A stretch of 64,000 bases of DNA from a virus. The stretch spans positions 15,937 to 79,936 of the IMG/VR virus record IMGVR_UViG_3300024329_000007. One strand, written 5' to 3'. Under the pieces are notes generated by a model. It was not told where the DNA came from, made no database searches, and saw only the letters and a list, made by a program, of their open reading frames with translations. Below are positions 4,522 to 25,620 of this stretch, in pieces. Both the position numbers and the translations under genes were made by a program. Positions within the stretch are counted from its first letter, which is position 1; every line of letters starts with the position of its first letter.

Positions 4522-5001
4522 TTATCCAAACTTTTTAATTGTCTTTGTTAATTCATCTAAAGATTTACCAACATGTTCACCAAAATCTGCATGAAGATCT
4601 TCATCAGCATCTAAAGGCTGCATATCTCTCCACTCTGTATATTTAGAAACAAACAATTCTGATGCATCCACTATTTTCTTAATATCGGATTTTGCATAGT
4701 CCTTTCCATAGTAACTATTAGGATCTACATCCTGTCTTGCTGTTTCGTCAGTAAATGGATTTTTAATATCGATGCCATCGTAATCAAAATTAAAAGCCTC
4801 AAATGATTTTAAATGCTTCATTCTTTTCTTTTTCTTTTTTTTGTACTCTTCTTCTGCGTCACCCCTGCCGGCAGGAACATCACCAGAACCTACACCACCA
4901 TCCATTGGCAATACAACAGGTCCCATTCCGCCCATTCCAGCTGGAGTTATATTTTCATTGATATCATCAATGAATGACTCAAATGTTGGTACGTATTTCA
5001 T
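4522..5001 (-). CDS. Putative internal head protein with two capsid-targeting-like motifs
   Basis: Begins MKYVPTFESFIDDINE; internal MKHLKSFEAF follows a poly-Lys run. Confidence 0.55.
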   Translation of the reverse strand: MKYVPTFESFIDDINENITPAGMGGMGPVVLPMDGGVGSGDVPAGRGDAEEEYKKKKKKRMKHLKSFEAFNFDYDGIDIKNPFTDETARQDVDPNSYYGKDYAKSDIKKIVDASELFVSKYTEWRDMQPLDADEDLHADFGEHVGKSLDELTKTIKKFG

Positions 5002-5020: not shown

Positions 5021-7936
5021 TTACCAAGCGTAATCAAAAGTTTCAATTTTAGATATTTGATCCTTAATTGTTTTAGCGTAATTTTTAGCTTCTCTTTCGT
5101 AGTAAGATTCAGATTGTCCATATCTTTCTTCAGATTCTTCACCCTGTCTAATGTAATCACAATATCTAGAATAGTTATCTAAAATATTTGACATGTGATT
5201 AGAAGCATCTCTTAATTTAGCTTCTCTACCTTTAGAGTTTTCTCCTATTTTAATTTCATCATATCTAGTTTTATTACCACTCGACAATCCGGCTTTAATT
5301 TGTTCTGCTAATTCATCAATAGCCTTTTCAACCATTTTATCAATTGGTAAAGAAGCTGCCTTGGTAGCTAAAATTTGGTGATATCTGTCTGCGTTAGCTT
5401 TCTTAAAAGCTGCATCATCTGTAAATGCAGTTGCACCTTCTTTTGCTCTTGCTCTGTCACCTCTTAAGTTTTCAGTAGAATACTTCTGTCTAATTAGATC
5501 TAAGCTTACAATAATAACTCTATCAGAAACTTCTGCAATTCTTTTACCATTACTTAAACCAGAAGCACCCCAGCCTCTATATTTCTTGTTTACACCAACT
5601 TGATCTGCAGAACCTTTTCTACCATCTTTTTTCCATGAAGTTGTCTTAGCCCATCTAGACCAGTCGTTAGTATAAAATTCTCTATCACCACCCATAGCTG
5701 CTAATAAACACCCGCCACCTGGAATTGTGCTCATTGCATTGTATGACCTAGAATCCTGTGGTAAATATGGATTCTCTTTTTCATTATCTGAAATAAAGAA
5801 AATAATATTTTTAGAACCACCATGGTTTTTAAATGCTTTTTGTGGGTTATTGTCTAAAATAAAATCTTCATCTTGTATTTTATCAAGGGCAACTTTAGTC
5901 AGTTGGTAAAAACCACCTGCTAATCTAGCTACGTTTTTTCTAGCGTGTTTTCCTTCTTGGTTACTTTGTAAAATACCTGATAATATAGCACTAGATATTT
6001 TTTCGTTTAATACGTTATATTCTGACTCAGTAGTAGCTGATTCTTCGATAAAACTAGCTAAATGTCCATCATCATCCCATCCGTATTTAGAATCGGCTAA
6101 AACAGCTTCAATATCTTTTCTTTTTCCAGTTAATTCAACTTCTGGATGTCCTCCTGCTGGGCCAATCTCTCTTAATACTTTTAATTCAACTTTGTGTTTC
6201 TTTAAAAGTTTTTTAAGTCCTTTTGATTCAGGGTCTGTAGCATCCATTATTACAGTAGCTTCACATAATTTTTCGTCTAGCCTATCAAAGAAGTCAAAGT
6301 GTTCACTTTGTAAATCTTCACCATACTTTTCGTCCCATATTTCAGCTAATTCATATTTAGTAACTTTACCTTTATACTTATCCATGATTTCAACATAGAT
6401 ACTACCATATTCATATTCAAAATCTTCACCATAAGAAAGATCCCATGCCTTTTCAATATCTTTAAATGTAAGCTTTTTGGCTTTGGCTTCAGTAACTACT
6501 GATTCTTTTACGAAATTCTTAAGATCATCTGGATCTATAGAGTATTCTACGTCATCCTCGTCACTTCTAAGAACAACTTCATATTTACTTATGTCCCAAA
6601 TCTTAAATTCGGCATCTTTATTAAGAGTAGATCCATCTACGTCGTTAGTTATATCGTAAACATCTCCATCAAAATCATCGCTATGGACTGTAGTTTTAAT
6701 CTTTTGGCCTTTTTTAAATTTAGCCTCGTTAATAGATTTGCTTGAGCTATTAATAAAGCTTGCAAATGATTCATGTAAAAATTTATTATTCATTTTTTTT
6801 GTATTTTTATTTGTTACTTTATAAGTTTTACCATCGAATTCAAATTCTTCGCTGCCCTCTTCAATTGCTTTAGCTCTTGCTCCTAAAAATGCGTTACCTT
6901 CTCTAACATTATCAGCAGATTCAGTATATAGGTTTACATAATTTCTACCTTTTTCAGAGTAAATTGAAGTGATTTTAAATTCACCATCAATTTTCTTACC
7001 AGTATCTTTTTTATAGTATTTAGCATAGTAAGCTTTAAAGAATAAGTTTGGTTCTAGTTCTCCAAAGAAGTGTGTCATTTTACCCATAAAGAATTTAGCA
7101 GATGGATAATAAGTTGTTATATCTGCTTTGGTTTCAGCATCTAAAACACCTTTATCGAAATCTTTTACAAATTTAGCTTCAGTAACTACTGATTCTTTAA
7201 CAAGAGAATCTGCGTCTATTGCTATTTCACTTGAAAAAGTCTTTAAACCATTAACCACAATCATACCATCTTTTTGTATACGAGTAACTTCACCTGAATC
7301 GAATGGTTTTTTAGAACTTCTGCTTAGAATAGAAACTTTATCTCCTACTCTAAATTTAGCTTCAGTAACTACAGATTCTTTAATTCTATACTTTTTCATT
7401 AAAGATTCAGCATCATCAATTGCATCTTGTAATTCTTGATCGCCCAAATCTGCCCAGTATTCAGATCCTCTTTCTCCGTCTAAATAATTCTGAGATATTT
7501 GTTCCCATTCATTTTCTGCTTTTCTATCATACATTAAAATACTATCAAGGTCTCCGATTCTGTCTACAAGAGCGTTAACGCTATAATTTCTATTATCAGA
7601 GCCAGCCATTGGACCATATTCATTAAGTTCTTTAGACTTAGAAGTTTTATTTAGCTCACCAAGAATTTTAATACCCCATCTCGAAAGTGATACACCATCT
7701 TCAGATACATTAAAGTATTTTTTATTTCTAGATTTCCATTGTTTATGATCTCCGGAAAGTTCAGAAATAATTTTAGTAAATTCTTCTTTAGTAATTACAC
7801 CATCTTTAATAGCCTCAATAACTGAATTTCTTACACTAGCCGTTTTACCAACAGTCCTTGCTGGATGGCGTTCTGTATATTTTCGTTTAAGTGTTAGTTT
7901 TTTACCTTCACTCAAGAATTCATTAAATTTTTTCAT
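5021..7936 (-). CDS. Modular polyprotein-like internal head protein (about 9-10 modules)
   Basis: Leader MKKFNEFLSE; three KESVVTEAK linkers plus ELNE, NVRE, SINEAK, LCE and VLNE junctions separating 55-95 aa modules and a long C-terminal domain. Confidence 0.6.
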   Translation of the reverse strand: MKKFNEFLSEGKKLTLKRKYTERHPARTVGKTASVRNSVIEAIKDGVITKEEFTKIISELSGDHKQWKSRNKKYFNVSEDGVSLSRWGIKILGELNKTSKSKELNEYGPMAGSDNRNYSVNALVDRIGDLDSILMYDRKAENEWEQISQNYLDGERGSEYWADLGDQELQDAIDDAESLMKKYRIKESVVTEAKFRVGDKVSILSRSSKKPFDSGEVTRIQKDGMIVVNGLKTFSSEIAIDADSLVKESVVTEAKFVKDFDKGVLDAETKADITTYYPSAKFFMGKMTHFFGELEPNLFFKAYYAKYYKKDTGKKIDGEFKITSIYSEKGRNYVNLYTESADNVREGNAFLGARAKAIEEGSEEFEFDGKTYKVTNKNTKKMNNKFLHESFASFINSSSKSINEAKFKKGQKIKTTVHSDDFDGDVYDITNDVDGSTLNKDAEFKIWDISKYEVVLRSDEDDVEYSIDPDDLKNFVKESVVTEAKAKKLTFKDIEKAWDLSYGEDFEYEYGSIYVEIMDKYKGKVTKYELAEIWDEKYGEDLQSEHFDFFDRLDEKLCEATVIMDATDPESKGLKKLLKKHKVELKVLREIGPAGGHPEVELTGKRKDIEAVLADSKYGWDDDGHLASFIEESATTESEYNVLNEKISSAILSGILQSNQEGKHARKNVARLAGGFYQLTKVALDKIQDEDFILDNNPQKAFKNHGGSKNIIFFISDNEKENPYLPQDSRSYNAMSTIPGGGCLLAAMGGDREFYTNDWSRWAKTTSWKKDGRKGSADQVGVNKKYRGWGASGLSNGKRIAEVSDRVIIVSLDLIRQKYSTENLRGDRARAKEGATAFTDDAAFKKANADRYHQILATKAASLPIDKMVEKAIDELAEQIKAGLSSGNKTRYDEIKIGENSKGREAKLRDASNHMSNILDNYSRYCDYIRQGEESEERYGQSESYYEREAKNYAKTIKDQISKIETFDYAW
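6483..7381. repeat. Three dispersed in-frame 26-30 nt direct repeats encoding KESVVTEAK
   Basis: gcttcagtaactac(t/a)gattcttt within 6483-6508, 7169-7198 and 7352-7381. Confidence 0.9.
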
Positions 7937-7938
7937 GT

Positions 7939-8334
7939 TTATTTAAGTTTTTTTAATATACCGTCTATTTCTGTATATGAGCAATTTGCACCCTTAACTA
8001 TAAATGATCCATAAGAGATTGAAAGGTTTGCACCTTCACCTCCAGTTTTTACTTGAGTTTTATATGCTTCTTCTATAGATGCTTGATCTTCAGCAACAGC
8101 AACAACTTTAGGTCTAAATCCAGCGCCTACATTATGATCGTCTAAAGATCTTAAATGCATTTGTTCTCCATTAACTTCTACTGTATTATGTAGTATTAAT
8201 GCAAAGTGGGTTTCACCCTTACCAGGTAAATCAAAACCATCAAATGCATATTTGCTAAAATAATATGATCCGAATTTTATTTTTTCATTTACTAAACTAT
8301 TAGTAAATTCTCCAAATGTTTTTGTATTTTTCAT
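7939..8334 (-). CDS. Hypothetical protein with capsid-targeting-like leader
   Basis: Begins MKNTKTFGEFTNSLVNE. Confidence 0.65.
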   Translation of the reverse strand: MKNTKTFGEFTNSLVNEKIKFGSYYFSKYAFDGFDLPGKGETHFALILHNTVEVNGEQMHLRSLDDHNVGAGFRPKVVAVAEDQASIEEAYKTQVKTGGEGANLSISYGSFIVKGANCSYTEIDGILKKLK

Positions 8335-8351
8335 ATTAGTATATTATTTTT

Positions 8352-10205
8352 TTATATATTCTTAATAAAATCATTAAATGTTTGGAAATCCGTTTTAGTA
8401 GATTCTTGCACAACTCCCATAGAGTCTTCCAGTTTAGACTTTAACTCAGCATACATATTATGTAATGCCTTTGGTGTTAGCTTCTTAAAGAGCTTCTCAT
8501 CACCGTCTAACATTGCATTTCTTACCTGTGTTGCTGATATATTCTTACCAGTTCTAGGGATTTCAAATAAACCAAAGTCATCTCTAACTCCTAGGTCATC
8601 TCTATATTCTTGTTTATCTACTTGGAATCCATAAGTTCTCATTCTATCACTTCCTGTTCCCCATAATACTGGTTCGTATTTTGGTCTCATTGCATTAAAC
8701 ATAGTGTCAATACCGCCGGTTGGAATTACAAAAACTTCTTCGATTGGATATTTAGATTTTAAAGAGTTAATCATTGCTACTTGAGTCTCCTCATCATAAG
8801 GTCTCTTAAATGCATCCTCTTTTTTCTTGTTCTTAGCTTTTACTAATAATATTACTACTGGGTAGCCATTTTGTTTATGAATAGTTTCAACTACTTTAGC
8901 ATGGCCTAGTGTAAATGGTTGGAATCTACCAACAAACATATTAACTAATTTCTTGCCTTGTTCTGGGTGGTCCACCTTTAATGCTTCTAAAATAGGACTT
9001 GTTTGTGATTTTAAATCTTGATTATTTAAGTATGTTTGAAAATTCATAACCTCATCTTCTTTTACATCTCCAACAATTAGGCTTTCAATATTAGTGACTA
9101 TTGTGTTTACTTTTGACATTAAGTCTTTATTAATAATATCTGTTTCTTTAGTTCTCTTTTTTCTAAAGCTACCTAATGCTATTTTAAAAAGCTCAGATAA
9201 AACTTTATTGTTTACTAATGATATTGTTTTCTCATTCTTAATAAACGCTTTATTAAGTTCAAAACCTGGAAGTGATGCAAAGTCAGCAGAATTAAAACTA
9301 GTTCCGATATACTTAGTAGCATGCTTATCAATATAAGCATTAAAAATAATTGAAATTAGTTCAATATATCTTTCATCAGTTTTTTCTGCGTCTAATTGAA
9401 TTGTATTAAAATCATAACCGCTCATAAATTCAACTAAGTCTAGAATAGACAGTTGATACATGTCGGATGGTGTTCTATCATTATTATAATCTCTATCAAA
9501 TCTTTCTAATTTAAAACTTTTTACATTTTTACCTTCATAGAAATTAATAATAAACGAATCTATATCTTTATCTAGAGTATTGTTTAATGCAGCACTAGAA
9601 GTAGCAGAATTAAATATATTGTAAACTGCTCTAGTAAAAGATTGTTCTTTAAATTTATTTTTAAAAGCCTCTTCGGAAAGTTCTAATATATCTAATAAGT
9701 CATTAACTTGATCTTCTGATAATCTACCTTGAAATATAATTTGAGGTCTTTGTACATCTAATAAATCAGACCAATGATAAAGAATATTTGGGTCTCTAAT
9801 TACCTTTTTAATTTGACTAGGATTAGTTGAACTTATCGTTTGTATGTGTGTTAATATTAAATTATTTTTAGGTAAGGCATCGTACTCAATGTCGATTGCT
9901 TTTTTAGTTGGTAAATAATCAAAACCAAATTTCCAATCTGTTGGAAGCTTTTCTAAAAGTTTAGGATCTAAAGATTTAAAATAATTAATTGCATTTTCAT
10001 AATATTTAACAATAGTCCTATCAACTTTATTCATAGCTATTTTTGAACCACTTTTATAAAATTCAAATTCTCCATTAGAAGATCTTTTAACATGAAATGA
10101 AGAGGCTTGTATCTTTTCAGATATAAGACTTGTTGATTTTATTAACTTAATAAAATCTTGTCTATTACTTGATTCAAAATATGTTTTTAGGTTTTGTAAT
10201 GCCAT
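8352..10205 (-). CDS. Degenerate ligase-like N-terminal domain fused to cytidylyltransferase-like (HIGH-superfamily) nucleotidyltransferase
   Basis: C-terminal FVGRFQPFTLGH and ISATQVR motifs; N-terminal ISEKIQAS resembles a degenerate EKxDG. Confidence 0.7.
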   Translation of the reverse strand: MALQNLKTYFESSNRQDFIKLIKSTSLISEKIQASSFHVKRSSNGEFEFYKSGSKIAMNKVDRTIVKYYENAINYFKSLDPKLLEKLPTDWKFGFDYLPTKKAIDIEYDALPKNNLILTHIQTISSTNPSQIKKVIRDPNILYHWSDLLDVQRPQIIFQGRLSEDQVNDLLDILELSEEAFKNKFKEQSFTRAVYNIFNSATSSAALNNTLDKDIDSFIINFYEGKNVKSFKLERFDRDYNNDRTPSDMYQLSILDLVEFMSGYDFNTIQLDAEKTDERYIELISIIFNAYIDKHATKYIGTSFNSADFASLPGFELNKAFIKNEKTISLVNNKVLSELFKIALGSFRKKRTKETDIINKDLMSKVNTIVTNIESLIVGDVKEDEVMNFQTYLNNQDLKSQTSPILEALKVDHPEQGKKLVNMFVGRFQPFTLGHAKVVETIHKQNGYPVVILLVKAKNKKKEDAFKRPYDEETQVAMINSLKSKYPIEEVFVIPTGGIDTMFNAMRPKYEPVLWGTGSDRMRTYGFQVDKQEYRDDLGVRDDFGLFEIPRTGKNISATQVRNAMLDGDEKLFKKLTPKALHNMYAELKSKLEDSMGVVQESTKTDFQTFNDFIKNI

Positions 10206-10207
10206 TG

Positions 10208-11509
10208 TTATCTACCGTATTTAATAATTCCCATTAATTGATTAATTGCAGCAAAAGTTCCAGTTAGTTTATAAGTATGTCCTTTATATCTAAATACAAG
10301 GCCTTCGGTTGGTATGATAGATTCAATACCTCCAATTCTATCTAAACGTTCTAGTTCTTTAGCTACTTTATTTATCTGAGTTATATCTCCGCCCTTTTTA
10401 ATCTTATCAGCTTCTGTTCTAATTTGATTATGCAGTCTCTGCATTTCTTTATCTGGATTTGCAGCCACAAAGTTAGAAGCGTTCTTTAAGATAACAGAAC
10501 CTAATTCTAAGAAAAGATCTTCAAAAGGTCTAATATTTTCTTTATATTTCTTTTTAACATCTTCTTTGTCAAATCTTTTAACAGCAGCTGCTTCATCTTT
10601 TCCTATTTCCTTTGCAAGACTTCTTAGATTAAGTGTTTTCTTATCTCCATAAGCCCATCTTAATAATAAGCCTTCTTTATAGTCTTGTTGTAAATCGGGG
10701 AAGTTTTTATCAATAGTTTCTCTCCACCACATTTCATGATATCTAGAAACCTCATCTGCATCTGTTAATCCATAACGATCTCTTAGCGCTTCAACCTTTT
10801 TTATAAACTTAAGTTGGTTCTTTTCAAAATCAATATCCTTACCTATCTTAATAATTTGTGGTGGAATAACTGTAAAGACTTTACCAATATTAGCGTTAAC
10901 TTTTTCTAAAGCAGCAGCAATTGATTTACCGTACTTAGGCTCTTCGCCAATTATATTACCATTACCATCTGTTATTTTAATTCCATGAAATTGAATAACG
11001 TCTCTATCATAATAGATAACATTTGGGTTTTTAGAGTAGATAAGCTCCATGTTCATAAAGTTCTTACCATTATCAAATGCTTCTAAATCTTTATCAGATA
11101 ACTTGACTAGAGAAGTTGCTAAATCTTTAGCAGCAAAAATATAAGTTTCTTCAACTAATTTTGATGCATGTCCAGTAAACATATCGATAATACCATTAAG
11201 GTCTAATGGGTTTGCCATTTGTCCTTTATTTCTAGCAAACATTGCTTGGCCATCCTTTACAGTGACAAAAAGATTTTGCCCATCAGTTTTTTCAGTAGGC
11301 TCTTCTTCAAAATTAAGTTCACCGCTAAGTCCAGATTGGATTAATTTTTTAAAGTCTCCAAATGTTAATTGTTTATTATCAAATGGATGTGACATGTGTC
11401 CTGCGGCACCACCTTCAAGTATTAAAGCCTCATTAACCGAAAATGAAGGAGCCTCTTTCAAAGTCCTTCTTTCCAGTACAAATTCTCTATAAGATTGTAG
11501 TTTTTTCAT
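10208..11509 (-). CDS. ATP-dependent RNA/DNA ligase-like nucleotidyltransferase (DUF6267-like)
   Basis: TEKTDGQN (motif I KxDG), NMELIY, EGLVF (motif IV), YKLTG (motif V); N-terminal GGAAGHMSHPFD. Confidence 0.6.
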   Translation of the reverse strand: MKKLQSYREFVLERRTLKEAPSFSVNEALILEGGAAGHMSHPFDNKQLTFGDFKKLIQSGLSGELNFEEEPTEKTDGQNLFVTVKDGQAMFARNKGQMANPLDLNGIIDMFTGHASKLVEETYIFAAKDLATSLVKLSDKDLEAFDNGKNFMNMELIYSKNPNVIYYDRDVIQFHGIKITDGNGNIIGEEPKYGKSIAAALEKVNANIGKVFTVIPPQIIKIGKDIDFEKNQLKFIKKVEALRDRYGLTDADEVSRYHEMWWRETIDKNFPDLQQDYKEGLLLRWAYGDKKTLNLRSLAKEIGKDEAAAVKRFDKEDVKKKYKENIRPFEDLFLELGSVILKNASNFVAANPDKEMQRLHNQIRTEADKIKKGGDITQINKVAKELERLDRIGGIESIIPTEGLVFRYKGHTYKLTGTFAAINQLMGIIKYGR

Positions 11510-11510
11510 A

Positions 11511-13583
11511 TTATGCTAGTGATGATTGTAAAATTCCTGCACATTTTCCGTAGTCACCATCGCATTTTTTTAATATGCCGGCAACAACCTCGTCTGCTTT
11601 AGCCTCATCAAATTCTTCTCCAAAAGCTTTTTGTAATACTTCGTATGCGTATTCTTTAAAATCTTCTTCAGATTTAATTTCAGCCTCGTTTACAGATTCA
11701 AAAAGAGAATTAAAATCATCTAATAAAGATTGTCCCATTCTTTCTTCTTTAAGCTCTTGTAAAAATAGAGCAGTTCCTTCAACAATCCCTTGGCCAGACC
11801 ATCCTGCCGCATTAGCGATATCTGAATAGTATTTGTCTAGAATCCTTTTTAAAGTAGTAGTTCCTAGTTTTACAAAGTGTCCACCTAGACCTGGTAACTT
11901 AATCTCTAAAGCCGCCATTTTACCTTTAATGTTTCTAGAAACAATTTTTTCTCTATGGAAGTTAGCGTCTGTCATTGCTTCTTCAAAAAGATATTTAACA
12001 CAACCTCTAATAGACTCATGAGACATTGCACCAAAATCTGGTAAAGTCTTATAGAATATTTTCTTATATTGTGTAACTACCTTTTTAGCATCTCTTTTGC
12101 CGTCAACTTTAATAGCTTCATTAACTACTGATTCATTGCACATTGAAACTAATTCTTGTGCAATCTTTTTTGCTTTAGAACCTTTATGTCCATAAGATTC
12201 AACTGTATCTAAAGCATCTTCCATTTCCATGCCATGTAATTCTCCCATGTCTCCTCCTCTTTCATCTAAAAGATCCTGTAAGATATTTTCAGCTTCTGAT
12301 TCATTAACTACTGATTCAAAATAATCTTCATAGTCAGAGATTGAGTCTGGTCCCCATACATCAGCTAAAACTTTTTCGATATCTTCTCTTTTACCGGTTA
12401 ATTTAACTTCTGGGTAACCGTGGTCACCTTCTTCTTTTTGAACTTTCATTTTAACTTTATTCTTCTTTAAAGATGTAGTTAAGGGTTTAAATTTAGTTGG
12501 GTGTATATCGTCATCGTTTCCAAATTCTATACCCGAAAGAGATGTTTCATTAACAACTGATTCAAAGGTTGATGATGGCATTAGTTCTTTATCGCCATAT
12601 ATGTCTGCTACCAACCAATTTTTATTCTCTTCATCCCATAAATAAACCCACTCAGCGCCGGCTCCATTTGAAACATCATTTAAATATTGGTCTACTTTTT
12701 TATATTGTCCTGTTGTTTGCATGTCACCGCTTTCACCACGATCTCTTCCGTAAAAAATAGTATAACCTCTAGTCGGATTAGAAAAACTATGTTTCTTACC
12801 TATTGATTTATCTAAAAATGAAATACCAGCCTTTCCTAATTTCATTAATTGCTTAATGTCACTTTCGCTATATCCTTTTAACATTGGTAGCATGTGCTCT
12901 GGGTAACCATCAGAATGTACGTATGTTGATGTGATTTTACCACTCTTACTAAGAATACCAATTTGAGATCTAGTTGATTCGTTAACCGCAAGCGACTCAA
13001 ATGCTGGAACTAACTCTGCGTTTCCGTCTACATGTAGCATATACCATTTACCATCTCGCTCGTCAAAAAGATAAACATATTCTGCCCAACCAATATCTTC
13101 TAGATATTTAGACATGTTTTTAATCTTTCCTTTTTGATTTTCCATGTCGCCATAGTAATTCATATACCTTGGGTCTTCTTCTAATCCAGAGCTACCTCCA
13201 TTTTTAAGAACCATGTTTAGTGGCGAACCACCCTTTAAATATGTCATCTTAATAAGTGGTAACATTGCTTCTGGATAAGAATCAGCATGTGTGTATACAC
13301 TTTCTATATTACCTCTTTTGTCTATTTTACCAAAATGGCCTCTAGTGGCTTCTGTTAGTAATAAAATAGACTCATTAAGGCCTAAATTTTTTAACTTGTC
13401 AAAAAATTCAAATCTTTTTTCTTCTTCTAATTCTTTTATTCGAGTTACTCCATATTCAGATAAAAGTTCTTTAAATAGATCTGCTTCGTTAGATCTTTTA
13501 GCGTTCTGTTTTTTCTCTAATGCAACAGTATCTTTTTCATGTTTTGCTGCAGAAAATTCAGCAAATGAATTTAATTTCTTCAT
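11511..13583 (-). CDS. Modular polyprotein-like internal head protein (about 7 modules)
   Basis: Leader MKKLNSFAEF; junctions LLLTE, FESLAVNE, FESVVNE (x2), NESVVNE, FESVNE; tandem duplicated HxD(G/S)YP domain. Confidence 0.6.
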   Translation of the reverse strand: MKKLNSFAEFSAAKHEKDTVALEKKQNAKRSNEADLFKELLSEYGVTRIKELEEEKRFEFFDKLKNLGLNESILLLTEATRGHFGKIDKRGNIESVYTHADSYPEAMLPLIKMTYLKGGSPLNMVLKNGGSSGLEEDPRYMNYYGDMENQKGKIKNMSKYLEDIGWAEYVYLFDERDGKWYMLHVDGNAELVPAFESLAVNESTRSQIGILSKSGKITSTYVHSDGYPEHMLPMLKGYSESDIKQLMKLGKAGISFLDKSIGKKHSFSNPTRGYTIFYGRDRGESGDMQTTGQYKKVDQYLNDVSNGAGAEWVYLWDEENKNWLVADIYGDKELMPSSTFESVVNETSLSGIEFGNDDDIHPTKFKPLTTSLKKNKVKMKVQKEEGDHGYPEVKLTGKREDIEKVLADVWGPDSISDYEDYFESVVNESEAENILQDLLDERGGDMGELHGMEMEDALDTVESYGHKGSKAKKIAQELVSMCNESVVNEAIKVDGKRDAKKVVTQYKKIFYKTLPDFGAMSHESIRGCVKYLFEEAMTDANFHREKIVSRNIKGKMAALEIKLPGLGGHFVKLGTTTLKRILDKYYSDIANAAGWSGQGIVEGTALFLQELKEERMGQSLLDDFNSLFESVNEAEIKSEEDFKEYAYEVLQKAFGEEFDEAKADEVVAGILKKCDGDYGKCAGILQSSLA
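12115..12566. repeat. Three in-frame direct repeats encoding ESVVNE
   Basis: tcattaac(t/a)actgattca at about 12118, 12301 and 12547; nearly the same DNA as the KESVVTEAK repeats at 6.5-7.4 kb. Confidence 0.85.
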
Positions 13584-13616
13584 CTTTTATATTTTTTTAT
13601 TTTTTATAGTATTAGA

Positions 13617-15125
13617 TTATATATCCCCCTCAAAAGTTACGTTTTTAATATCATACTTAAACTTCTGTTCTTTATAGATTTTCTGCCTAGCTTTTGAGTG
13701 TCTTATTAAGTAGTTATCCCAATCCGGTGAGCTTAAGTCATCTACAAAGTCAATAATGTTTACACTATCCTTTGATTTATGTTGCCTTAAACCTCTACCA
13801 ATAGATTGCCTAATGATTACTTCTGATTTAAATGATTCTGTAAAGAATATGTTGTGGATTTTCTTGATGGATATACCAGTTGAGAATGTACCGTATGAAG
13901 CGACGATAACGACTTCTTCTCCGGCTTCCATTTTCTTTTTATATTCTTCTCTAATATCTTTATCAATTCCGCCATCAACATAATAAACTATTTTATTACT
14001 TTCTTGCCTAAGTTTGTCATATATCTTTCGGCCATGTTCAATTCTGTGAAAAAGAACGAGGCTATTTCTCTTAACTCTTGAAATTACACTTGTTATAAAG
14101 TTAAGTCTTCCAGGGGAATTAATTATATAGTTCTGTTCAAATTTAAAAACATCCTTGCTTTCATATCTATTCTGTGACATCTCTCTAAAAGCATCCTTTG
14201 TAGATTGTGCAGCATAATCCATTTTAATTACCTTAACGTGACATTGTGCAATATGTCCTTCATTTTGTAAAAAGTTTGCAGACACCTCCGTAATTACCGG
14301 TCCAGTATAAGCCATAAGAGTAAGTCTATCCAATGTGTTTGCTTTTGGTATTGTACCAGAGAGTCCGCTTCTATATTCAGCGTTAACACATTTTTGTAGA
14401 ATAGTTTTAATTGATGTAGACTTGGCCTTATGTGTTTCATCAATAATAACAGCATCAAACTGTTCAAAATATTCTTTATCTTTTTTAACAAGGGATTGAT
14501 AAGTACCAACTACTACATTTCTACCCGGCCTAATCTTTTGGCCAGAATAGATTTGTTGTACTTTAATATTTGCCCTGCCTTTCCAATTATAGTCTAAAAA
14601 ATCTTCAGTGGCCTGTACTACAAGAGAAACATTAGGTACAATAAAGAGTATTCTTTTTGCCTTTTGTTTTTCTAACATATATGCTACTGTAAGAAATGAA
14701 ATTAAAGTTTTCCCGGCAGAAGTTGCTAATTCAGATAAGCACTTTCTAAATTTAAGGATGTTAAATGCAGCCTCAATCTGATAATCTCTTGGAGTTATTT
14801 GAGAGCCCTCAAAAAATTCTAAGGCCCATTCGGTAAAAGTTTCTTGATTAATATTTCTATCAAACAATTCAGTAATACCATTTATTTTTAATTCGTATTT
14901 ATATTCTTTACAAACATTCATCACTTCTCGCCAAAGACCAGAAGGAATCCATTTGTCATCTTTTATATAAGATATGTAGCCATCCCATAGTCCCTTTTTA
15001 ACCAATGGGTGAAATCTCCAATTTTCTACCCTACGGTTTAAAGAAATATTGAGCTGTTCGATTTCCATTTCTGTAGCCGAATCAACTCTTAGCAATTGCT
15101 TATTATCTGTTAAACTTATTTCCAC
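13617..15125 (-). CDS. uvsW: UvsW-like SF2 DNA helicase
   Basis: WDGYI N-terminal motif, PRDYQ, ATSAGKT, DETH, SGLSGT, QSIGRGLR; adjacent to uvsY. Confidence 0.92.
   Translation of the reverse strand: MEISLTDNKQLLRVDSATEMEIEQLNISLNRRVENWRFHPLVKKGLWDGYISYIKDDKWIPSGLWREVMNVCKEYKYELKINGITELFDRNINQETFTEWALEFFEGSQITPRDYQIEAAFNILKFRKCLSELATSAGKTLISFLTVAYMLEKQKAKRILFIVPNVSLVVQATEDFLDYNWKGRANIKVQQIYSGQKIRPGRNVVVGTYQSLVKKDKEYFEQFDAVIIDETHKAKSTSIKTILQKCVNAEYRSGLSGTIPKANTLDRLTLMAYTGPVITEVSANFLQNEGHIAQCHVKVIKMDYAAQSTKDAFREMSQNRYESKDVFKFEQNYIINSPGRLNFITSVISRVKRNSLVLFHRIEHGRKIYDKLRQESNKIVYYVDGGIDKDIREEYKKKMEAGEEVVIVASYGTFSTGISIKKIHNIFFTESFKSEVIIRQSIGRGLRQHKSKDSVNIIDFVDDLSSPDWDNYLIRHSKARQKIYKEQKFKYDIKNVTFEGDI
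13618..13625 (-). promoter_or_regulatory. GATATATA putative late promoter heading the internal-protein block
   Basis: Exact octamer 35 nt upstream of the ATG at 13583; recurs before six other gene starts. Confidence 0.55.
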
Positions 15126-15146
15126 TTAATGTGTTTTTGTTTCTTT

Positions 15147-15569
15147 TTATAGATCCTTTAATGCCAATCTATTTCGGATTGCAAAGCCCATATTATCTAG
15201 GGTTTTGACCGATTCTCTAAAAAAATCTAATTGATTTTCTAGATGTGATAGTATCATGTTCTCATTTGAAAGATCAGTTTCAATAAACTTTTCTTTTTGC
15301 TTCTCACCAAGCTTATAGTCATATTCATAATAACGAATATAAGCCTCTCGATACCTAACACTTATTTTTGATTTTTGCTCTTTAATCTTAACATTCATAT
15401 ATGCCATTTGATCTATAAGAGTCTGTCTAGAAGATAGCACATCTGCTATAGTGCCTTCCATTGTATTAATATTACGAAGGCTTTGTGCGAGTGCTTTAAT
15501 TTTATTAGACCACTCTGTTCTTTGGGTACTTAACTTAGCATCCAAATTTAATATTTGTTCTTTACTCAT
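15147..15569 (-). CDS. uvsY: UvsY-like recombination mediator
   Basis: Helical 140-aa protein with YIRYY and C-terminal KTLDNMGFAIRN; next to uvsW. Confidence 0.7.
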   Translation of the reverse strand: MSKEQILNLDAKLSTQRTEWSNKIKALAQSLRNINTMEGTIADVLSSRQTLIDQMAYMNVKIKEQKSKISVRYREAYIRYYEYDYKLGEKQKEKFIETDLSNENMILSHLENQLDFFRESVKTLDNMGFAIRNRLALKDL

Positions 15570-15579
15570 TTATGTTTAT

Positions 15580-15804
15580 TTAAAATAAAGATTTATCATC
15601 ACCTCGCTTGGGCTTTATGTAAACGCTGGTTTTTTGTTTCTTTTTAAACTTGGGTTTACCAGGATCAAAAGCAACACTTTCCGGTTTATGCTCAATTGGT
15701 GTAAAGTCAATAAGTAATTTAAGGTTTTTAAATCTACTCTTGTCTCTATAAAAATCTTCTAAGTTATCTTCCACTATATCGTTAATATCTTCTATAAGTA
15801 CCAT
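15580..15804 (-). CDS. Hypothetical protein
   Basis: 74-aa ORF overlapping the primase stop. Confidence 0.6.
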   Translation of the reverse strand: MVLIEDINDIVEDNLEDFYRDKSRFKNLKLLIDFTPIEHKPESVAFDPGKPKFKKKQKTSVYIKPKRGDDKSLF

Positions 15805-16868
15805 AAGTCTAATTGGTTTGATGTGAAATAATTATTAATTTGCTTATGTGCATTTGACTTAAGCTCAAAACATTTTAACATCAAATCATTTAAATCTTTG
15901 ATATTATATTTATCTAGATTATTATCTTTAAGAAATTTAGACCACATAAATACTGATTTACCTTTTTTAAGTTTTTCAATCATTTTAGAGCGTCCTGTTT
16001 TATCATTATCAAACATATATCTAACCGTAGCCATTTCGTCAAACTCATCTGTAGTTCTACCAGCAGTTGCTAAAGCAATAGAGTTATGCATAAACTTAGC
16101 ATCAAGTGGCCCTTCAAAAAGAGTTACTGGTCTTTGAAAGTTAATTTGCATAATACCAAATAAGGTTGATGCCTTATTCATATTGCCTAATAATGTTGGT
16201 TCTACTTCAAGTTGATTTCCCATTTCAGAATAGAGTTTTGATAGATCGTAAGTTAGATACCTAGAACCATAGCCCTTCATTTTTCTAGTTTGAGCTCCCA
16301 TCACCTTTCCAGTATTGGTCATATTAAGAATCCAAAGTCGATGGCCCTTTTCTGTATAAAGGAATTCATCGGTTCTATTATGAAGAAGTCTATCTTTTAA
16401 TTGAAACCAAATCCAATCACCAGGTTCAACTGGCTTAGCTTTAAAAGACTTTTTAAAATCATCAAGTGTTATTGCATATTCTTCAACTGAACTCATTACA
16501 GCATGCTTAAGCGTGTCCTCTGAGTTTATTTTGACCTTATTCTGTTGAATATAGTCAATTACTGTAAAAGCATCATCAGAATTACTAAGCTTAATGCCAT
16601 GGTCTTTTAATAAAGAATGGATATTTGTATGTTCGCTGCAGTTATAACAATGATATTGAAGCGTATCCCAATACATGTTACCACGCTTTTTAGTATGGTC
16701 TGTATGTGAATCGCCACAATAAGGACATGCCAGGGTTATTCGCCCTGGCATGCTCTTAAGAAGTTGTTTACTAGGAGAAGAGTGTTCTTGTACGCAAAGT
16801 TCCTTTAACGCTTTTTTAATTCTTTCTCTTAGTTCTTCCGTTAATTGTATATTAGATGTCGAGGTCAT
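15792..16868 (-). CDS. DNA primase (T4 gp61-like)
   Basis: Zn ribbon CPYCGDS...YHCYNC; TOPRIM motifs FEGPLDA, FDND, KDLND. Confidence 0.92.
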   Translation of the reverse strand: MTSTSNIQLTEELRERIKKALKELCVQEHSSPSKQLLKSMPGRITLACPYCGDSHTDHTKKRGNMYWDTLQYHCYNCSEHTNIHSLLKDHGIKLSNSDDAFTVIDYIQQNKVKINSEDTLKHAVMSSVEEYAITLDDFKKSFKAKPVEPGDWIWFQLKDRLLHNRTDEFLYTEKGHRLWILNMTNTGKVMGAQTRKMKGYGSRYLTYDLSKLYSEMGNQLEVEPTLLGNMNKASTLFGIMQINFQRPVTLFEGPLDAKFMHNSIALATAGRTTDEFDEMATVRYMFDNDKTGRSKMIEKLKKGKSVFMWSKFLKDNNLDKYNIKDLNDLMLKCFELKSNAHKQINNYFTSNQLDLWYL

Positions 16869-17763
16869 TCAAAAAAGAATCTAAATCATCATCCGTACTA
16901 ACTTTAGAATCTGTACTTGCAGTTGTAGTTGCAGAACCTGCAGTTTCTGCTACTTTAGCTGGTGCTGGTTTTTCTTCTTTCTTTGCAGATCCGGTTATGG
17001 CTGCAATAGACTCTCCTGGGTTAAGGTACATACGAAGTACATCGTTAACAAAGCTACGCATATCTTCATCCCATGCTCTGTAGTCATAGTTAGCTAATGA
17101 TGGTGCATTGTCTAATTCTGTTTTGATCGTCGCCATTGTCTCTTTATTTCTTTCAGCTGGTGCATCTTCTAAGATAATTGCTGATTTACTTGCAGAGAAT
17201 TTAGACTTGTCATAGTTGTTGTATTCACCTTGTCTTGTGATAATCAACTCAAAGTTCTTTCCTTCAAAAAGGTCAAATACTTGTGTTGGCTCCCCAAAGT
17301 CTGGTTTTAATTCAGCATCGATCTTCTCTTTGATCTTATACCCGAATTTAAATACTTTGTACTGTCCTTCTAAATCTGGATTTTGTGGATCCTTTACGAT
17401 TTTAATAAGTGCATAATACTGCTGACGTCTTTTCAGTTTCTCAGATGCCTTACGGTCAACTGCTGAGTCAGACTTTCTTAATTTCCAAAATACGTCTGCA
17501 ATAGGACATTTCTCTCCGATTGTTGATGGACTGTCTACTAATTTACCATCTCCTGAAGAGTTAGTTAACCAGTGGACATATTTTTGGATTAGTGAGTTAC
17601 GAGGGTTTTCTGGATTAGGTACAAAACGTATTAATGCTTTGTAAGTTCCGTCTTTACCATCGTCTGCTGTTGGTTTGTAAATCTCATTTGTTGAGTTACT
17701 TGTTTGTACTTGGTGAGTTTCTACGTCTTCTACGCCCAAGTTAAAAATGTCAAAATCTGCCAT
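16852..17763 (-). CDS. Single-stranded DNA-binding protein (T4 gp32-like)
   Basis: ALIRFVP, STIGEKCP, DPQNPDLEG, FKFGYKI, YDKSKF; acidic tail DDDLDSFLNDL. Confidence 0.92.
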   Translation of the reverse strand: MADFDIFNLGVEDVETHQVQTSNSTNEIYKPTADDGKDGTYKALIRFVPNPENPRNSLIQKYVHWLTNSSGDGKLVDSPSTIGEKCPIADVFWKLRKSDSAVDRKASEKLKRRQQYYALIKIVKDPQNPDLEGQYKVFKFGYKIKEKIDAELKPDFGEPTQVFDLFEGKNFELIITRQGEYNNYDKSKFSASKSAIILEDAPAERNKETMATIKTELDNAPSLANYDYRAWDEDMRSFVNDVLRMYLNPGESIAAITGSAKKEEKPAPAKVAETAGSATTTASTDSKVSTDDDLDSFLNDLDI

Positions 17764-17848
17764 AATTCCTTTAAATTGTTTAATTGTTTAATACTTGAAA
17801 TAACTTTAATGTCCTTTCATTCCTTATAGTATGCTACTTTATTTAGTT

Positions 17849-18031
17849 TCAAATAGTTTGCAATGTTAATATCGTACTTTCATTTTCTCTCCATCTACCG
17901 TCCTTAAGCTTAAGCAGCCCTGCCTTGTGTAGTAATGTATCACGCTCAATTGCAGTGATTTTATTATCTTTCACCATTTTTATTAGGACTCTGTCTAGAC
18001 TGAGAAAGTCAGTAGTAACTAACATATACAA
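17849..18031 (-). CDS. Small hypothetical protein
   Basis: 60-aa ORF with promoter motifs at 18062-18087. Confidence 0.55.
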   Translation of the reverse strand: MYMLVTTDFLSLDRVLIKMVKDNKITAIERDTLLHKAGLLKLKDGRWRENESTILTLQTI

Positions 18032-18188
18032 GTTATTTTAATTGTTTAAGTAACATATAGGTTATATATCTAAGTTTAAAATTGTTTCTAAATTAGCTTA
18101 AAAAAATTAATTTGAAAAAAAGTTGAAATAGTTTGGAACAAAGCCAGTAGGCTTGCATATAAGTAATGTATTTAAAGGAAAGATAAGG

Positions 18189-18839
18189 TTAGTTCAGAGC
18201 GTTAGCAGTATAAGCTACAAGATAGCAAGCATCAATAAGGTCATCAAAAGGTTTAGGCACCTTTTTCCCAGTTTCAATTTCCCTAACATATTTATAGAAA
18301 GAGCTTTTAAGCAGAGACTTGTCATTAGCGGTATTTGCTTTAAAGGCATCAAATAATTGTAGCTTACTCATATTACCTTTACCTGCAAACTTCTTAAGAG
18401 AGGTTGGAGCTACAGTCAAGATATCTTCCGGCTTTAAAGTCTTTATCATCTTTAATTTTAAAATAGCAGCACCTGCTGCCATGTCAATCATATTATTAGT
18501 TCCCATTTTAGAACCATAAGAAGAGCCTTCAAATGCAATAGTAAATCCATCAGATTCAAATGTATTCTGTGCAATTAAATTAAGAATATCATCAGCCATC
18601 CTGTCATATCTTTTAACTTTAGCTAATTCTGATTTTGAATAATCTTTATTACTTGTGAAATCTGGCTGAGCCACTAATGTGACATCTGGTAAAATGCTAA
18701 TTTCTTCCTGCATTTTTTGTTCAGCCTTAGTACCTGATTTAGGCTTAAGATAACTTATAAAGTGATACACTTTACTTTTATCATTCCAGATACAAATACC
18801 TGGTGAGTTTAATGAGAAGTCTACTCCTATAAAATTCAT
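18189..18839 (-). CDS. RuvC-like Holliday junction resolvase
   Basis: IGVDFSLNSPG, AFEG, APTSLKKFAGKGN, DDLIDA catalytic pattern. Confidence 0.8.
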   Translation of the reverse strand: MNFIGVDFSLNSPGICIWNDKSKVYHFISYLKPKSGTKAEQKMQEEISILPDVTLVAQPDFTSNKDYSKSELAKVKRYDRMADDILNLIAQNTFESDGFTIAFEGSSYGSKMGTNNMIDMAAGAAILKLKMIKTLKPEDILTVAPTSLKKFAGKGNMSKLQLFDAFKANTANDKSLLKSSFYKYVREIETGKKVPKPFDDLIDACYLVAYTANALN

Positions 18840-19214
18840 TTAAATTCTTTTACCCATTGCAGCACCAAGAGCGGCACCAACTAATCTGGAAGTTAATAAA
18901 TCGTAAAAAATACCTTTTTGAATTCCTAAAACTTTAGCAATAACCTTTCCAATTGATTTACCTAATGCAAATCCAGCTAAACCACCTATAATAGAACCTA
19001 GAATACCTTCATTAGTCATCTCTTCATTTAAACGATCTAAATCATAAGTACCATCCTTTCTTTTATATTCAGCTTCAAATGCTTCAATAGCCGCATCTAC
19101 TTCAGCTTCTAATTCTGGAGTCCACTCTTCTTGTAAGCCCTCTTTGACTAAAGAATAGTCCTGCTCACTAATTTCGTTTTCTACTAAATAATCGTTAAAT
19201 GTTTTCATATTCAT
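18840..19214 (-). CDS. Putative virion protein: capsid-targeting-like leader, acidic pro-region, glycine-zipper C-terminus
   Basis: MKTFNDYLVE...MTNE|GILGSIIGGLAGFALG...LVGAALGAAMG; GATATATA at 19231-19238. Confidence 0.55.
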   Translation of the reverse strand: MNMKTFNDYLVENEISEQDYSLVKEGLQEEWTPELEAEVDAAIEAFEAEYKRKDGTYDLDRLNEEMTNEGILGSIIGGLAGFALGKSIGKVIAKVLGIQKGIFYDLLTSRLVGAALGAAMGKRI

Positions 19215-19241
19215 AATATTTTTTATAAAGTATATATCTTT

Positions 19242-19793
19242 TTATTCTATTTCTAGTCTAAGATCTAGTTTATTGTAAAAAAATGAAACCTCAAATGTAT
19301 TAAACTCTGCTACGTTCTGTGCCATATTAAGACTTAATTCATTTATTGAGTTCATAATCGGTTTTTGAAATTCCATATATGCAACAGAAGCTCCCTCGGC
19401 ATCTAAAATTCTTAATGTTAAAGGCTGAGTATAAGGTTCTTTTGTACTTCTTGCATAATAATAAAGCAATGTGTCCATCATAATCCAATAATTAATAAAA
19501 CCATCTAATAATTGCATGGTCACTGTAAATTCTCTTTGAATTGTATTTTGAATTGGAACTGCTCCCCTGTGATACCTTGTGGTTCCATCATTATCAGCTT
19601 GAGTAATTGGATCAAAAGAAATTCCTGGCACATTAATACCCTGTATAGAATAATTAATATAATCAATAGGCTCTGCTAATAAAGATCCCGGAATTCTATT
19701 TAAATACGATTTGTATTTATTTGCAACTTCTTCTGGTACAAATTTTCTAGGAAATCTAAAATCATAAAGGTTATTTCTGCTATTTAAAATCAT
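19242..19793 (-). CDS. Tail tube-fold protein (gp3/gp19-like)
   Basis: IQGINVPGISF...FTVTMQLLDGFINYW...FEVSFFY pattern; about 180 aa; tail context. Confidence 0.55.
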   Translation of the reverse strand: MILNSRNNLYDFRFPRKFVPEEVANKYKSYLNRIPGSLLAEPIDYINYSIQGINVPGISFDPITQADNDGTTRYHRGAVPIQNTIQREFTVTMQLLDGFINYWIMMDTLLYYYARSTKEPYTQPLTLRILDAEGASVAYMEFQKPIMNSINELSLNMAQNVAEFNTFEVSFFYNKLDLRLEIE

Positions 19794-19806
19794 AATATCT
19801 TATATC

Positions 19807-22272: not shown

Positions 22273-22284
22273 AATTTTTTATAT

Positions 22285-23091
22285 TTAAAACCTCAACCAC
22301 TTAGGTGACCAATATACTCCTAAACCAATAGAAGGGCCAGTACTAATTACTTGATTATTATTTAAGTTTATTCCATACCCAACTCCTATTCCGATAGACC
22401 AACCAGATTTTTTTTCATATCTTTGGTTTAGTTTAGTATTTATCAGGTTTATATTTTCAATATCAGAGATAATTAATCCAGGATATGTTGTTGATAATTT
22501 AAGTCTATTTGAACCTTCTACGTTTTCAATTGCTGCACTTAAAGATAATGTTTGATCTATATTAAATTGACTCTCACCTATTATATAGAATTTACCACCA
22601 CTAAATCTAACAGTAGAAGAACCTGTTAATGTTCTAGTATTCCCTTTGCTAAATATATCAAACTTATTGTACTTTATTTCACTTGTAGTAGAATCAATCT
22701 CCACGACGCTAGTTGATGCTAATAAACTATCTTTAATTGCAAGTTCAGCAGAAATCAAAGTATTTACTTCATTTAAATCTTTATTTAAATTAAGAGCATT
22801 TGTATACTTTTTAATCATGTCTTTCTGATCGTCTTTTAGGTTTATTATATCAAATTCATAACTTCTAATCGTGCTAATTAACTCACCAGTTCCGGTTTTA
22901 TAAATTTCTATAGAGTCTTTAGAAGCTAAATAATTATTAAAGTTTCTATCTGAAGTTTCTTGTGTAGTTTTTAAATCTCTTTTAAGTTTTTCAGTCTGTT
23001 CACATTGTCTTAAAAATAATAAAACGAAAAGAACACCTAGTACAAAACCAAGTGTGCTTTTATTAGATAATATTTTTTTTAATTTATTCAT
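22285..23091 (-). CDS. Membrane-anchored coiled-coil protein (possible spanin-like)
   Basis: N-terminal hydrophobic helix ending FLRQC, a coiled coil, and C-terminal amphipathic strands WSIGIGVGYG...IGLGVYW. Confidence 0.4.
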   Translation of the reverse strand: MNKLKKILSNKSTLGFVLGVLFVLLFLRQCEQTEKLKRDLKTTQETSDRNFNNYLASKDSIEIYKTGTGELISTIRSYEFDIINLKDDQKDMIKKYTNALNLNKDLNEVNTLISAELAIKDSLLASTSVVEIDSTTSEIKYNKFDIFSKGNTRTLTGSSTVRFSGGKFYIIGESQFNIDQTLSLSAAIENVEGSNRLKLSTTYPGLIISDIENINLINTKLNQRYEKKSGWSIGIGVGYGINLNNNQVISTGPSIGLGVYWSPKWLRF

Positions 23092-23108
23092 TATTTACTT
23101 TTTAATTA

Positions 23109-25619: not shown

Positions 25620-25620
25620 A

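Follow-up and report, generated by a model that had tools for sequence, protein, structure and literature searches.

Two candidate head-packaged polyproteins on a viral contig, built of small modules joined by prohead-protease-like junctions

The stretch analysed here (the window) comprises 64,000 nucleotides, bases 15937-79936 of the 79.9-kb IMG/VR viral contig IMGVR_UViG_3300024329_000007, whose genome completeness CheckV puts at about 27%. The window has a G+C content of about 32% and carries nearly every gene on the minus strand; its source is probably an uncultured jumbo phage of marine origin whose head is of the T4 type. Our subject is a pair of long open reading frames (ORFs) that we call array A (5021-7936, minus strand, 971 amino acids, beginning MKKFNEFLSE) and array B (11511-13583, minus strand, 690 amino acids, beginning MKKLNSFAEF). 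The original prediction, made from the DNA alone, read them as strings of small proteins that are packaged into the phage head and separated there by the head-maturation protease. Both ORFs proved to be as it described them: every junction that it listed was found in the translations, and the HxDxYP motifs, the duplicated W..YGED part, the AKF.. module starts and the EFEFDGKTYKV stretch are all present. Its module sizes, given as mostly 55-145 amino acids, held for the small modules (57-151 amino acids as measured) but not for one C-terminal domain of 326 amino acids.

It is practically certain that the two ORFs are strings of small, unrelated modules – mosaic in composition and joined by a conserved junction. 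Their layout, from N- to C-terminus of each chain, is as follows:

7907-7936, minus strand: array A residues 1-10, the leader MKKFNEFLSE, which resembles the capsid-targeting sequence (CTS) of T4; predicted cut after E10 from the family consensus.
7619-7906, minus strand: array A residues 11-106, basic N-terminal module of 10.9 kDa and isoelectric point (pI) 10.0, ending ELNE106; constant in all family members, homology blocks ending at 101-106.
7361-7618, minus strand: array A residues 107-192, variable, acidic module that ends in KESVVTE192; a homology block stops exactly at 192.
7178-7360, minus strand: array A residues 193-253, small beta module with an AKFRVGDKV start and a KESVVTE253 end; four strands predicted at low confidence.
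6902-7177, minus strand: array A residues 254-345, AKFVK module, better folded in the model than any other part of array A (predicted local distance difference test score, pLDDT, 85-91); found in the other array family in some relatives.
6725-6901, minus strand: array A residues 346-404, GNAF..EFEFDGKTYKV sub-module ending SINE404; delimited by a homology breakpoint.
6488-6724, minus strand: array A residues 405-483, AKFKKGQKI module ending KESVVTE483; Glu at P1 in 19/20 contexts.
6002-6487, minus strand: array A residues 484-645, a duplicated W..YGED helical part (484-556) and a phrog_5922-like module (557-645) ending VLNE645; from a profile match and breakpoints.
5021-6001, minus strand: array A residues 646-971 and stop, constant 36.6-kDa C-terminal domain; core invariant in 54 homologues, (F/I)-L-N-E before it in 66/66 contexts.
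13350-13583, minus strand: array B residues 1-78, helical N-terminal module, constant in the family, that includes the leader MKKLNSFAEF; canonical sites begin with GLNE71 and LLLTE78, from alignment and model.
12978-13349, minus strand: array B residues 79-202, first (A)TRG..HxDxYP module, of the phrog_1987 family.
12546-12977, minus strand: array B residues 203-346, second STRS..HxDGYP module; its start is the exact start of stand-alone homologues after Met1.
12300-12545, minus strand: array B residues 347-428, phrog_5922-like module; Glu at P1 in 24/24 contexts.
12117-12299, minus strand: array B residues 429-489, acidic helical module of 61 amino acids (SEAEN..); order relative to the preceding module swapped in a close relative.
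11685-12116, minus strand: array B residues 490-633, 144-amino-acid module with pLDDT above 90; Glu at P1 in 72/72 contexts.
11511-11684, minus strand: array B residues 634-690 and stop, constant acidic C-terminal three-helix module of 57 amino acids; Glu at P1 in 124/125 contexts.

With an arrow marking the predicted cut, the junctions of array A read ELNE106, KESVVTE192↓AK, KESVVTE253↓AK, SINE404↓AK, KESVVTE483↓AK and VLNE645, to which homology breakpoints add two sites of a more general [LV]-x-E type at about E345 (NVRE↓GNAF) and about E556 (KLCE↓ATV); those of array B read LLLTE78, FESLAVNE202, FESVVNE346, FESVVNE428, NESVVNE489 and FESVNE633. There are thus six to nine sites per chain, with the consensus (E)S-V-V-(N/T)-E; the junction before the GNAF sub-module is degenerate in array A (NVRE↓G), whereas relatives have VVNE↓G. 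The loose tripeptide [LIVMAF][NT]E is merely two- to threefold enriched (7.2 and 10.1 per 1000 amino acids in the arrays versus 3.3 elsewhere on the contig). The extended motif [ES]S[LIVMAF]{1,3}[NT]E, by comparison, occurs eight times in the arrays' 1,661 amino acids and not once in the 24,231 amino acids of the contig's other 67 ORFs, a skew whose chance we put, by our own rough estimate rather than as the output of a tool, at about 3e-10.

What happens at these junctions is suggested by relatives of the individual modules. The second HxDGYP module (array B residues 203-346) was searched against 1.84 billion cluster representatives, among which it has 2,086 relatives, and the best 145 of these were re-aligned. 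In 53 of the 145, the STRS..HxDGYP module follows Met1 immediately and so begins at residue 2, most of the 53 being stand-alone proteins of 120-200 amino acids that begin M-(S/A/G)-T-R-S. Stand-alone homologues, which the original prediction had proposed to look for module by module, therefore exist, and the phrog_1987 match likewise runs from profile position 2. Another 92 copies are embedded or leadered, and 90 of them have Glu directly before the module; in the same 92 contexts P3 is I, L or V in 90, hydrophobic residues predominate at P4 and T or N at P2, and P1' is occupied by G, S or A. A cut after this Glu would therefore recreate the N-terminus that the free protein has once its Met is removed. 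The cultured cyanophages S-T4 and MED4-213 have a homologue of the module as a stand-alone gene, again starting at Met1+1 and lying amid small genes of unknown function.

The same rule extends to other modules. Some proteins consist of a short leader ending in the junction motif and a single module, as in ..FINEKPINE↓GTRS and ..LKEDVINE↓GTRS; the AKFVK module, too, is found singly behind a leader in a protein of 102 amino acids (P0455, MKHVKLFESFVNE↓AKFIK, that is, ..FESFVNE↓AKFIK), and within arrays it is always introduced by ..(N/T)E↓A(K/R)FV. Logos for seven modules have Glu at P1 in 72/72, 124/125, 24/24, 66/66, 109/131, 19/20 and 15/20 distinct contexts – counts that come from related proteins, so that their independence is overstated, albeit with differing upstream modules – together with V/I/L at P3 and N/T at P2; most exceptions are register shifts by one residue. 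On these alignments, we regard proteolytic cutting after the junction Glu as likely. A further set of single-module relatives from other phages (P0259, P0294, P0326, P0348 and P0349) begins with a different leader, MK(K/I)(S/T)(E/K)(L/S)..LI(R/K)EE.., which still ends in hydrophobic-x-E before the module and, from its sequence, may be a second class of head-targeting leader.

The N-terminal tag of array A, proposed earlier to be of the T4 kind, indeed matches the T4 CTS in register at F4, F7, L8 and E10. The T4 sequence is MKTYQEFIAE (PMC8442874), and suppressor analysis assigned targeting to its residues 4 and 7 and processing to residues 8 and 10 (PMC9026906). The array A family has the leader consensus M-x-x-F-E-D-F-L-S-E↓GKK, and the array B family M-x-K-L-(K/N/Q)-S-F-x-(E/Q)-F; in the latter, ATE↓A frequently comes next, at position 13. 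At position 10 of the T4 leader, Asp blocks processing. Array B itself has L4 and F7, lacks E10 and reaches its first canonical site at 71/78; because the family site at position 13 is absent here, the whole 78-amino-acid helical first module may, as far as the sequence tells, act as a propeptide. Five other ORFs in the window begin with the same kind of leader. That these leaders might be Sec/Tat signal peptides was considered and rejected by eye, as they have no hydrophobic core.

The original prediction placed the protease gene outside the window, which is correct, and expected a gp21-type protease in the genome, for which the result is divided: the gene is present on two related contigs, one of them collinear with the source, and absent from the source contig itself. 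On the two relatives Peptidase_S77 is matched at 42.4 bits against a Pfam cut-off of 27. Positions 12842 to 2 of the source contig are collinear with 12000 to 26187 of one of these relatives at 85-99% amino acid identity, and in that relative the portal gene starts at about 29.6 kb and the protease gene lies at about 31.6 kb; the source contig therefore breaks off about 5.4 kb short of the expected protease gene. Gene order on the related contigs – portal, a leadered ORF of 112-115 amino acids, a protease of 699-728 amino acids fused to an acidic scaffold, capsid protein – mirrors the T4 order gp20-67-68-21-22-23, and the small ORF between portal and protease has the same leader as the arrays (MKNLKTFEDF.., MKIIKTFEEFIQE↓D). 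The fusion proteins (L015:5634-7733 and L016:6743-8929, 699-728 amino acids) join the gp21-type protease to a long acidic coiled-coil scaffold. The protease domain is 26% identical to T4 gp21 (E = 5e-12), with conservation of the residues aligned with His85 and Ser140, which we take to be the catalytic residues of gp21.

The presumed natural substrates of this protease can be compared with the array junctions. A conserved RVNE↓SYG right behind the protease domain looks like a self-release site; the lineage's capsid protein begins MANL(L/I)NE↓AEIR.. and has a second site, GINE↓S; and the T4 gp23 cut site, read from AF158101, is FLTE↓AEIGG. The sites in the major capsid protein and the protease domain thus carry the same motif as the array junctions. 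The capsid protein is gp23-like, has no cultured relative above 60% identity, and finds its nearest records in an uncultured 462-kb phage (49%) and in Prevotella Lak phages (36%); from the latter, distant likeness, a Bacteroidota host would be a guess.

Both arrays belong to large families in a large metagenomic protein collection: at least 769 members of 412-902 amino acids for array B and at least 539 members of 613-905 amino acids for array A, on contigs of up to about 255 kb and many from Tara and other marine samples. Crude module clustering gives 67 architectures among 137 proteins, with first and last modules constant and the middle variable, a count that is approximate as single-linkage clustering fused several module families into one cluster; we therefore rely on the logos above and on homology breakpoints instead. 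In array B, 73% of 691 internal breakpoints fall within 10 residues of a junction versus 19% expected, and in array A, 38% versus 13%; homology blocks between array A and its relatives stop at 106 and 192 and restart at 631-645. A close relative (best segment 93% identical) has two array B modules in swapped order and lacks one HxDGYP copy, and the AKFVK module of array A recurs at 70% identity in the array B family of two other phages. Some shorter relatives (P0466, P0494, P0506 and P0482) combine the AKFVK module with a cytidylyltransferase domain (PF01467) or with SnoaL-like domains in one polypeptide, so that enzymes, too, occur as array members. One array B homologue (L010:4381-6412) is split into two overlapping ORFs of 485 and 213 amino acids, probably through a frameshift or an assembly error within the array. 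At the DNA level, the linkers repeat GAA TCA GTA GTT A(C/A)T GAA over 18-24 nucleotides (window positions 6485-7380 and 12114-12566); because their codons are mostly the preferred ones, this likeness is weak evidence for shared descent or recombination, although recombination at the linkers is plausible on sequence grounds.

Taken together, modularity, the junction rule, the leader and the protease of collinear relatives support the original prediction's reading of head-packaged polyproteins, and we consider it probable, from sequence comparison, that the prohead protease cuts these chains after they have been packaged. In this mechanism, the T4-CTS-type leader would carry the whole chain into the core of the assembling prohead – in array B, leader and constant 78-amino-acid helical module may do so together. 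The gp21-type serine protease (Peptidase_S77, fused to the scaffold) would then, while maturing the head, remove the leader and cut after the Glu of each hydrophobic-(N/T)-E junction, releasing folded modules of 6-16 kDa and one domain of 36.6 kDa. The modules so released would have the N-termini that their free-standing homologues display after Met removal, would remain in the head and would enter the cell with the DNA, as pre-made forms of what other phages encode as small stand-alone gene products. The many architectures would then follow from the short linker that all modules share: with that linker on both sides, modules could be gained, lost, swapped and moved between arrays while their delivery is kept, which may be what selects for the mosaicism seen in the families.

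Several observations weigh against this mechanism. The support for packaging is wholly comparative, the logo counts rest on contexts that are not fully independent, and Peptidase_S77 is absent from the entire 79.9-kb contig. Array B has no hydrophobic-x-E site around residues 10-13 of its leader. The array genes sit outside the head cluster and among replication genes, although the ip genes of T4 likewise lie outside its head gene cluster. A T4-type late promoter (TATAAATA) is found neither upstream of the array operon nor enriched in the window, and thus gives no evidence on the timing of expression. Module pI is mixed, most modules being acidic, unlike the basic T4 internal proteins; and neither megablast nor tblastn found cultured relatives of the arrays in the phage collection.

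The structure models cut both ways. An AlphaFold2 model of array B, built from 71 sequences (mean pLDDT 73), has well-folded modules and a predicted template modelling score (pTM) of 0.35, hence modules without a fixed mutual arrangement; pLDDT drops below 50 at, among others, residues 71-78, 196-204, 342-366 and 630-633. The expectation that linkers lie between folds holds for four of its six junctions, which fall below pLDDT 50, and fails for the other two, E489 standing at a helix end and E428 inside a moderately confident helix – the latter a point against cutting there. With a mean pLDDT of 51.6, the model of array A is poor; it places all junctions in low-confidence stretches, as it does half the protein, so that its linkers count for little. 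The AKF.. modules, described earlier as SH3/KOW-like, have beta-strands predicted at low confidence.

Also unfavourable is that profile, fold and sequence searches assigned a function to no module. Pfam, NCBIfam and PHROGs match both arrays only to families of unknown function (phrog_1987 and phrog_5922), with neither a function nor an embedded peptidase; Foldseek against the PDB returned nothing at E <= 0.001 for the modules, the BFVD fold search returned small uncharacterised phage proteins only, and the 326-amino-acid C-terminal domain of array A has no Pfam or NCBIfam match and no usable ESM Atlas match. The wide VIA-align search yielded generic small helical bundles (Z <= 7.2), the best matches covering array B residues 420-490 and 634-690; since these weak matches span single modules, they were counted in favour of a modular structure.

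Other explanations of the same sequences have to be weighed against head packaging. The chains might be cut at their junctions outside the head, as cytoplasmic polyproteins that the same or another Glu-specific protease divides into equal amounts of product, with neither packaging nor injection. A neighbourhood of replication genes without a recognisable late promoter would suit such processing, as would the acidity of many modules and the occurrence of leaderless stand-alone homologues amid small genes of unknown function in cultured phages. It would leave unexplained, however, why the leader fits the capsid-targeting positions of T4, why the same leader type recurs on the small ORF between portal and protease, and why the junction is that of the N-terminal site of the lineage's major capsid protein and of T4 gp23; gp21-type proteases act inside proheads, and no other protease gene is evident near the arrays. 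We therefore think cutting in the cytoplasm unlikely, and somewhat less likely again that the chains are packaged and cut merely as expendable core or scaffold material, like T4 gp22, gp67 and gp68, with fragments that are expelled or play no role. Such a filler could carry the leader, which is also found on the ORF in the gp67/68 position; the lineage's scaffold has many similar sites; and an effector function is known for no module. Yet the modules fold as globular domains, their autonomous homologues number in the thousands across several kinds of phages, their sizes are near those of the internal proteins that T4 retains, and fast shuffling between constant ends is typical of conflict genes and not of scaffolds.

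If, on the other hand, the arrays were ordinary multidomain proteins that stay uncleaved, ESVV(N/T)E would be a conserved flexible linker or a recombination scar, and the likeness of linker DNA between copies could reflect duplication history alone. That likeness is weak, given the mostly preferred codons. A passive linker would not be expected to place its boundary to the residue at Met1+1 of free homologues with Glu before it (90/92, 72/72 and 124/125), nor would single-module proteins be expected to keep a short leader that ends in the motif. We give this explanation very little credence, the least of the three. Cutting of head-packaged chains by the prohead protease remains the reading that we prefer.

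Among the known systems closest to the arrays are the internal proteins of T4. As in IPI, IPII, IPIII and Alt, array A has a leader of about 10 residues in which positions 4 and 7 are aromatic, position 8 is hydrophobic and position 10 is Glu; the cut, here a sequence-level match, follows hydrophobic-x-Glu; the lineage has T4-type head genes, including an S77 protease; and hypervariable cargo stands behind a conserved tag (PMC3012670, PMC9026906, PMC7411985). T4 internal proteins, however, are single proteins with one cut beside the CTS (PMC8442874), whereas here one leader precedes six to nine unrelated modules, each with its own site, many of them acidic instead of basic; no sequence homology between the arrays and T4 internal proteins was found.

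The original prediction knew of no description of such arrays, a claim that stands in part. Packaged multidomain proteins released by embedded peptidases are known as polyvalent proteins, in which 2-15 unrelated domains per phage polypeptide were proposed to travel inside the capsid, to enter the cell together with the DNA and to be released by proteolysis (Iyer et al. 2017; PMC5512222); CTS-led arrays cut by a prohead protease, on the other hand, were not found described in full-text literature searches. With the polyvalent proteins of phages and conjugative elements, the arrays share several unrelated domains per chain and extreme architectural mosaicism. They differ in showing no known domain and no embedded peptidase, where polyvalent proteins have recognisable conflict domains and an embedded Zn-metallopeptidase, MPTase; release from the arrays would occur in trans, by the head-maturation protease at a repeated linker, with targeting by a CTS-type leader. 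In the phages phiKZ, 201phi2-1 and SPN3US, many head-internal proteins are cut C-terminal to Glu by gp21-related proteases, sometimes at several sites (PMC9026906, PMC10052503). The multiple cuts described for phiKZ and SPN3US lie in long propeptides that are removed, whereas those predicted here part folded, product-like modules; their motif is (S/A/G)-x-E or A-x-E (PMC7411985, PMC10052503), whereas P3 in nearly all array junctions is V, I or L, as in T4. Polyproteins of eukaryotic RNA viruses, which a viral protease likewise divides at short, repeated sites into several functional proteins, offer a parallel of strategy without evolutionary relation, the arrays being an accessory gene subset of a double-stranded DNA phage with presumed processing inside the capsid.

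If confirmed, the arrays would represent a polyprotein strategy undescribed for double-stranded DNA phages, in which one targeting tag loads many small proteins into the head and the maturation protease frees them. Small phage proteins that are known by the thousand from marine metagenomes but remain uncharacterised would thereby acquire a means of delivery and, with it, a moment at which they act, within the first seconds of infection; cassette shuffling would explain how the cargo set evolves. It also offers a sequence rule for injected proteins in T4-type phages, namely leader plus hydrophobic-(N/T)-E↓small residue, and suggests a design for placing several cargos in one T4-type capsid. That the modules act as injected effectors is a tentative proposal, somewhat short of an even bet, and an anti-defence or takeover role is speculative. 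Equally tentative is the generalisation that CTS-led cut cargo forms an open cassette system throughout a large, abundant group of marine jumbo phages, able to deliver pre-made whatever small protein follows a hydrophobic-(N/T)-E linker; if so, double-stranded DNA phages would have a previously unrecognised way to inject a large, rapidly reshuffled proteome.

The surroundings of the arrays are conserved. Directly upstream lie T4-type replication genes (gp41-like helicase, primase, gp32-like single-stranded DNA-binding protein and RuvC-like resolvase), and large ORFs of tail or baseplate size are found further along. Related IMG/VR contigs share the order helicase, array B, an ORF of 423-433 amino acids, one of 617-620, one of 127-138 and array A, while array length differs among them (A, 329+ to 830 amino acids; B, 485-637). 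The genes between the arrays, and the leadered ORFs elsewhere in the window, are these:

7939-11509, minus strand: three genes between the arrays in the same tight operon (ORFs of 433, 617 and 131 amino acids), with synteny kept in relatives.
10208-11509, minus strand: 433-amino-acid ORF with the same leader (MKKLQSYREFVLE..SFSVNE↓A).
8352-10205, minus strand: leaderless 617-amino-acid ORF with a cytidylyltransferase/NMNAT-like C-terminus (PF01467, TIGR00125).
7939-8334, minus strand: 131-amino-acid ORF with the same leader (MKNTKTFGEFTNSLVNE↓K); the family is tandemly duplicated in relative L012.
4522-5001, minus strand: 159-amino-acid ORF with the same leader (MKYVPTFESFIDDINE↓N).
48655-49812, plus strand: CCA-adding or poly(A) polymerase family enzyme (PF01743, 113.6 bits), starting MNLHNFADFKLLTE↓AK in the same leader-plus-site pattern.
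18840-19214, minus strand: 124-amino-acid ORF with the same leader (MNMKTFNDYLVENE) and a weak glycine-zipper match.

The 433-amino-acid ORF has no sequence match in Pfam, NCBIfam, PHROG or PDB; it contains EKTDGQN, which resembles the KxDG motif I of nucleotidyltransferases (ligases), and, if a ligase, may be delivered by the virion. In the N-terminal part of the 617-amino-acid ORF, EKIQASSFHVK stands where relatives have the ligase-like EKIDGSSFHVK, so that the KxDG motif is altered in this phage. The gene for the CCA-adding enzyme adjoins the arrays in relative L008, and if tagged cargo is indeed delivered as a general cassette system, the tag on this enzyme and on the ligase-like protein would mean that the virion also carries an RNA-repair kit.

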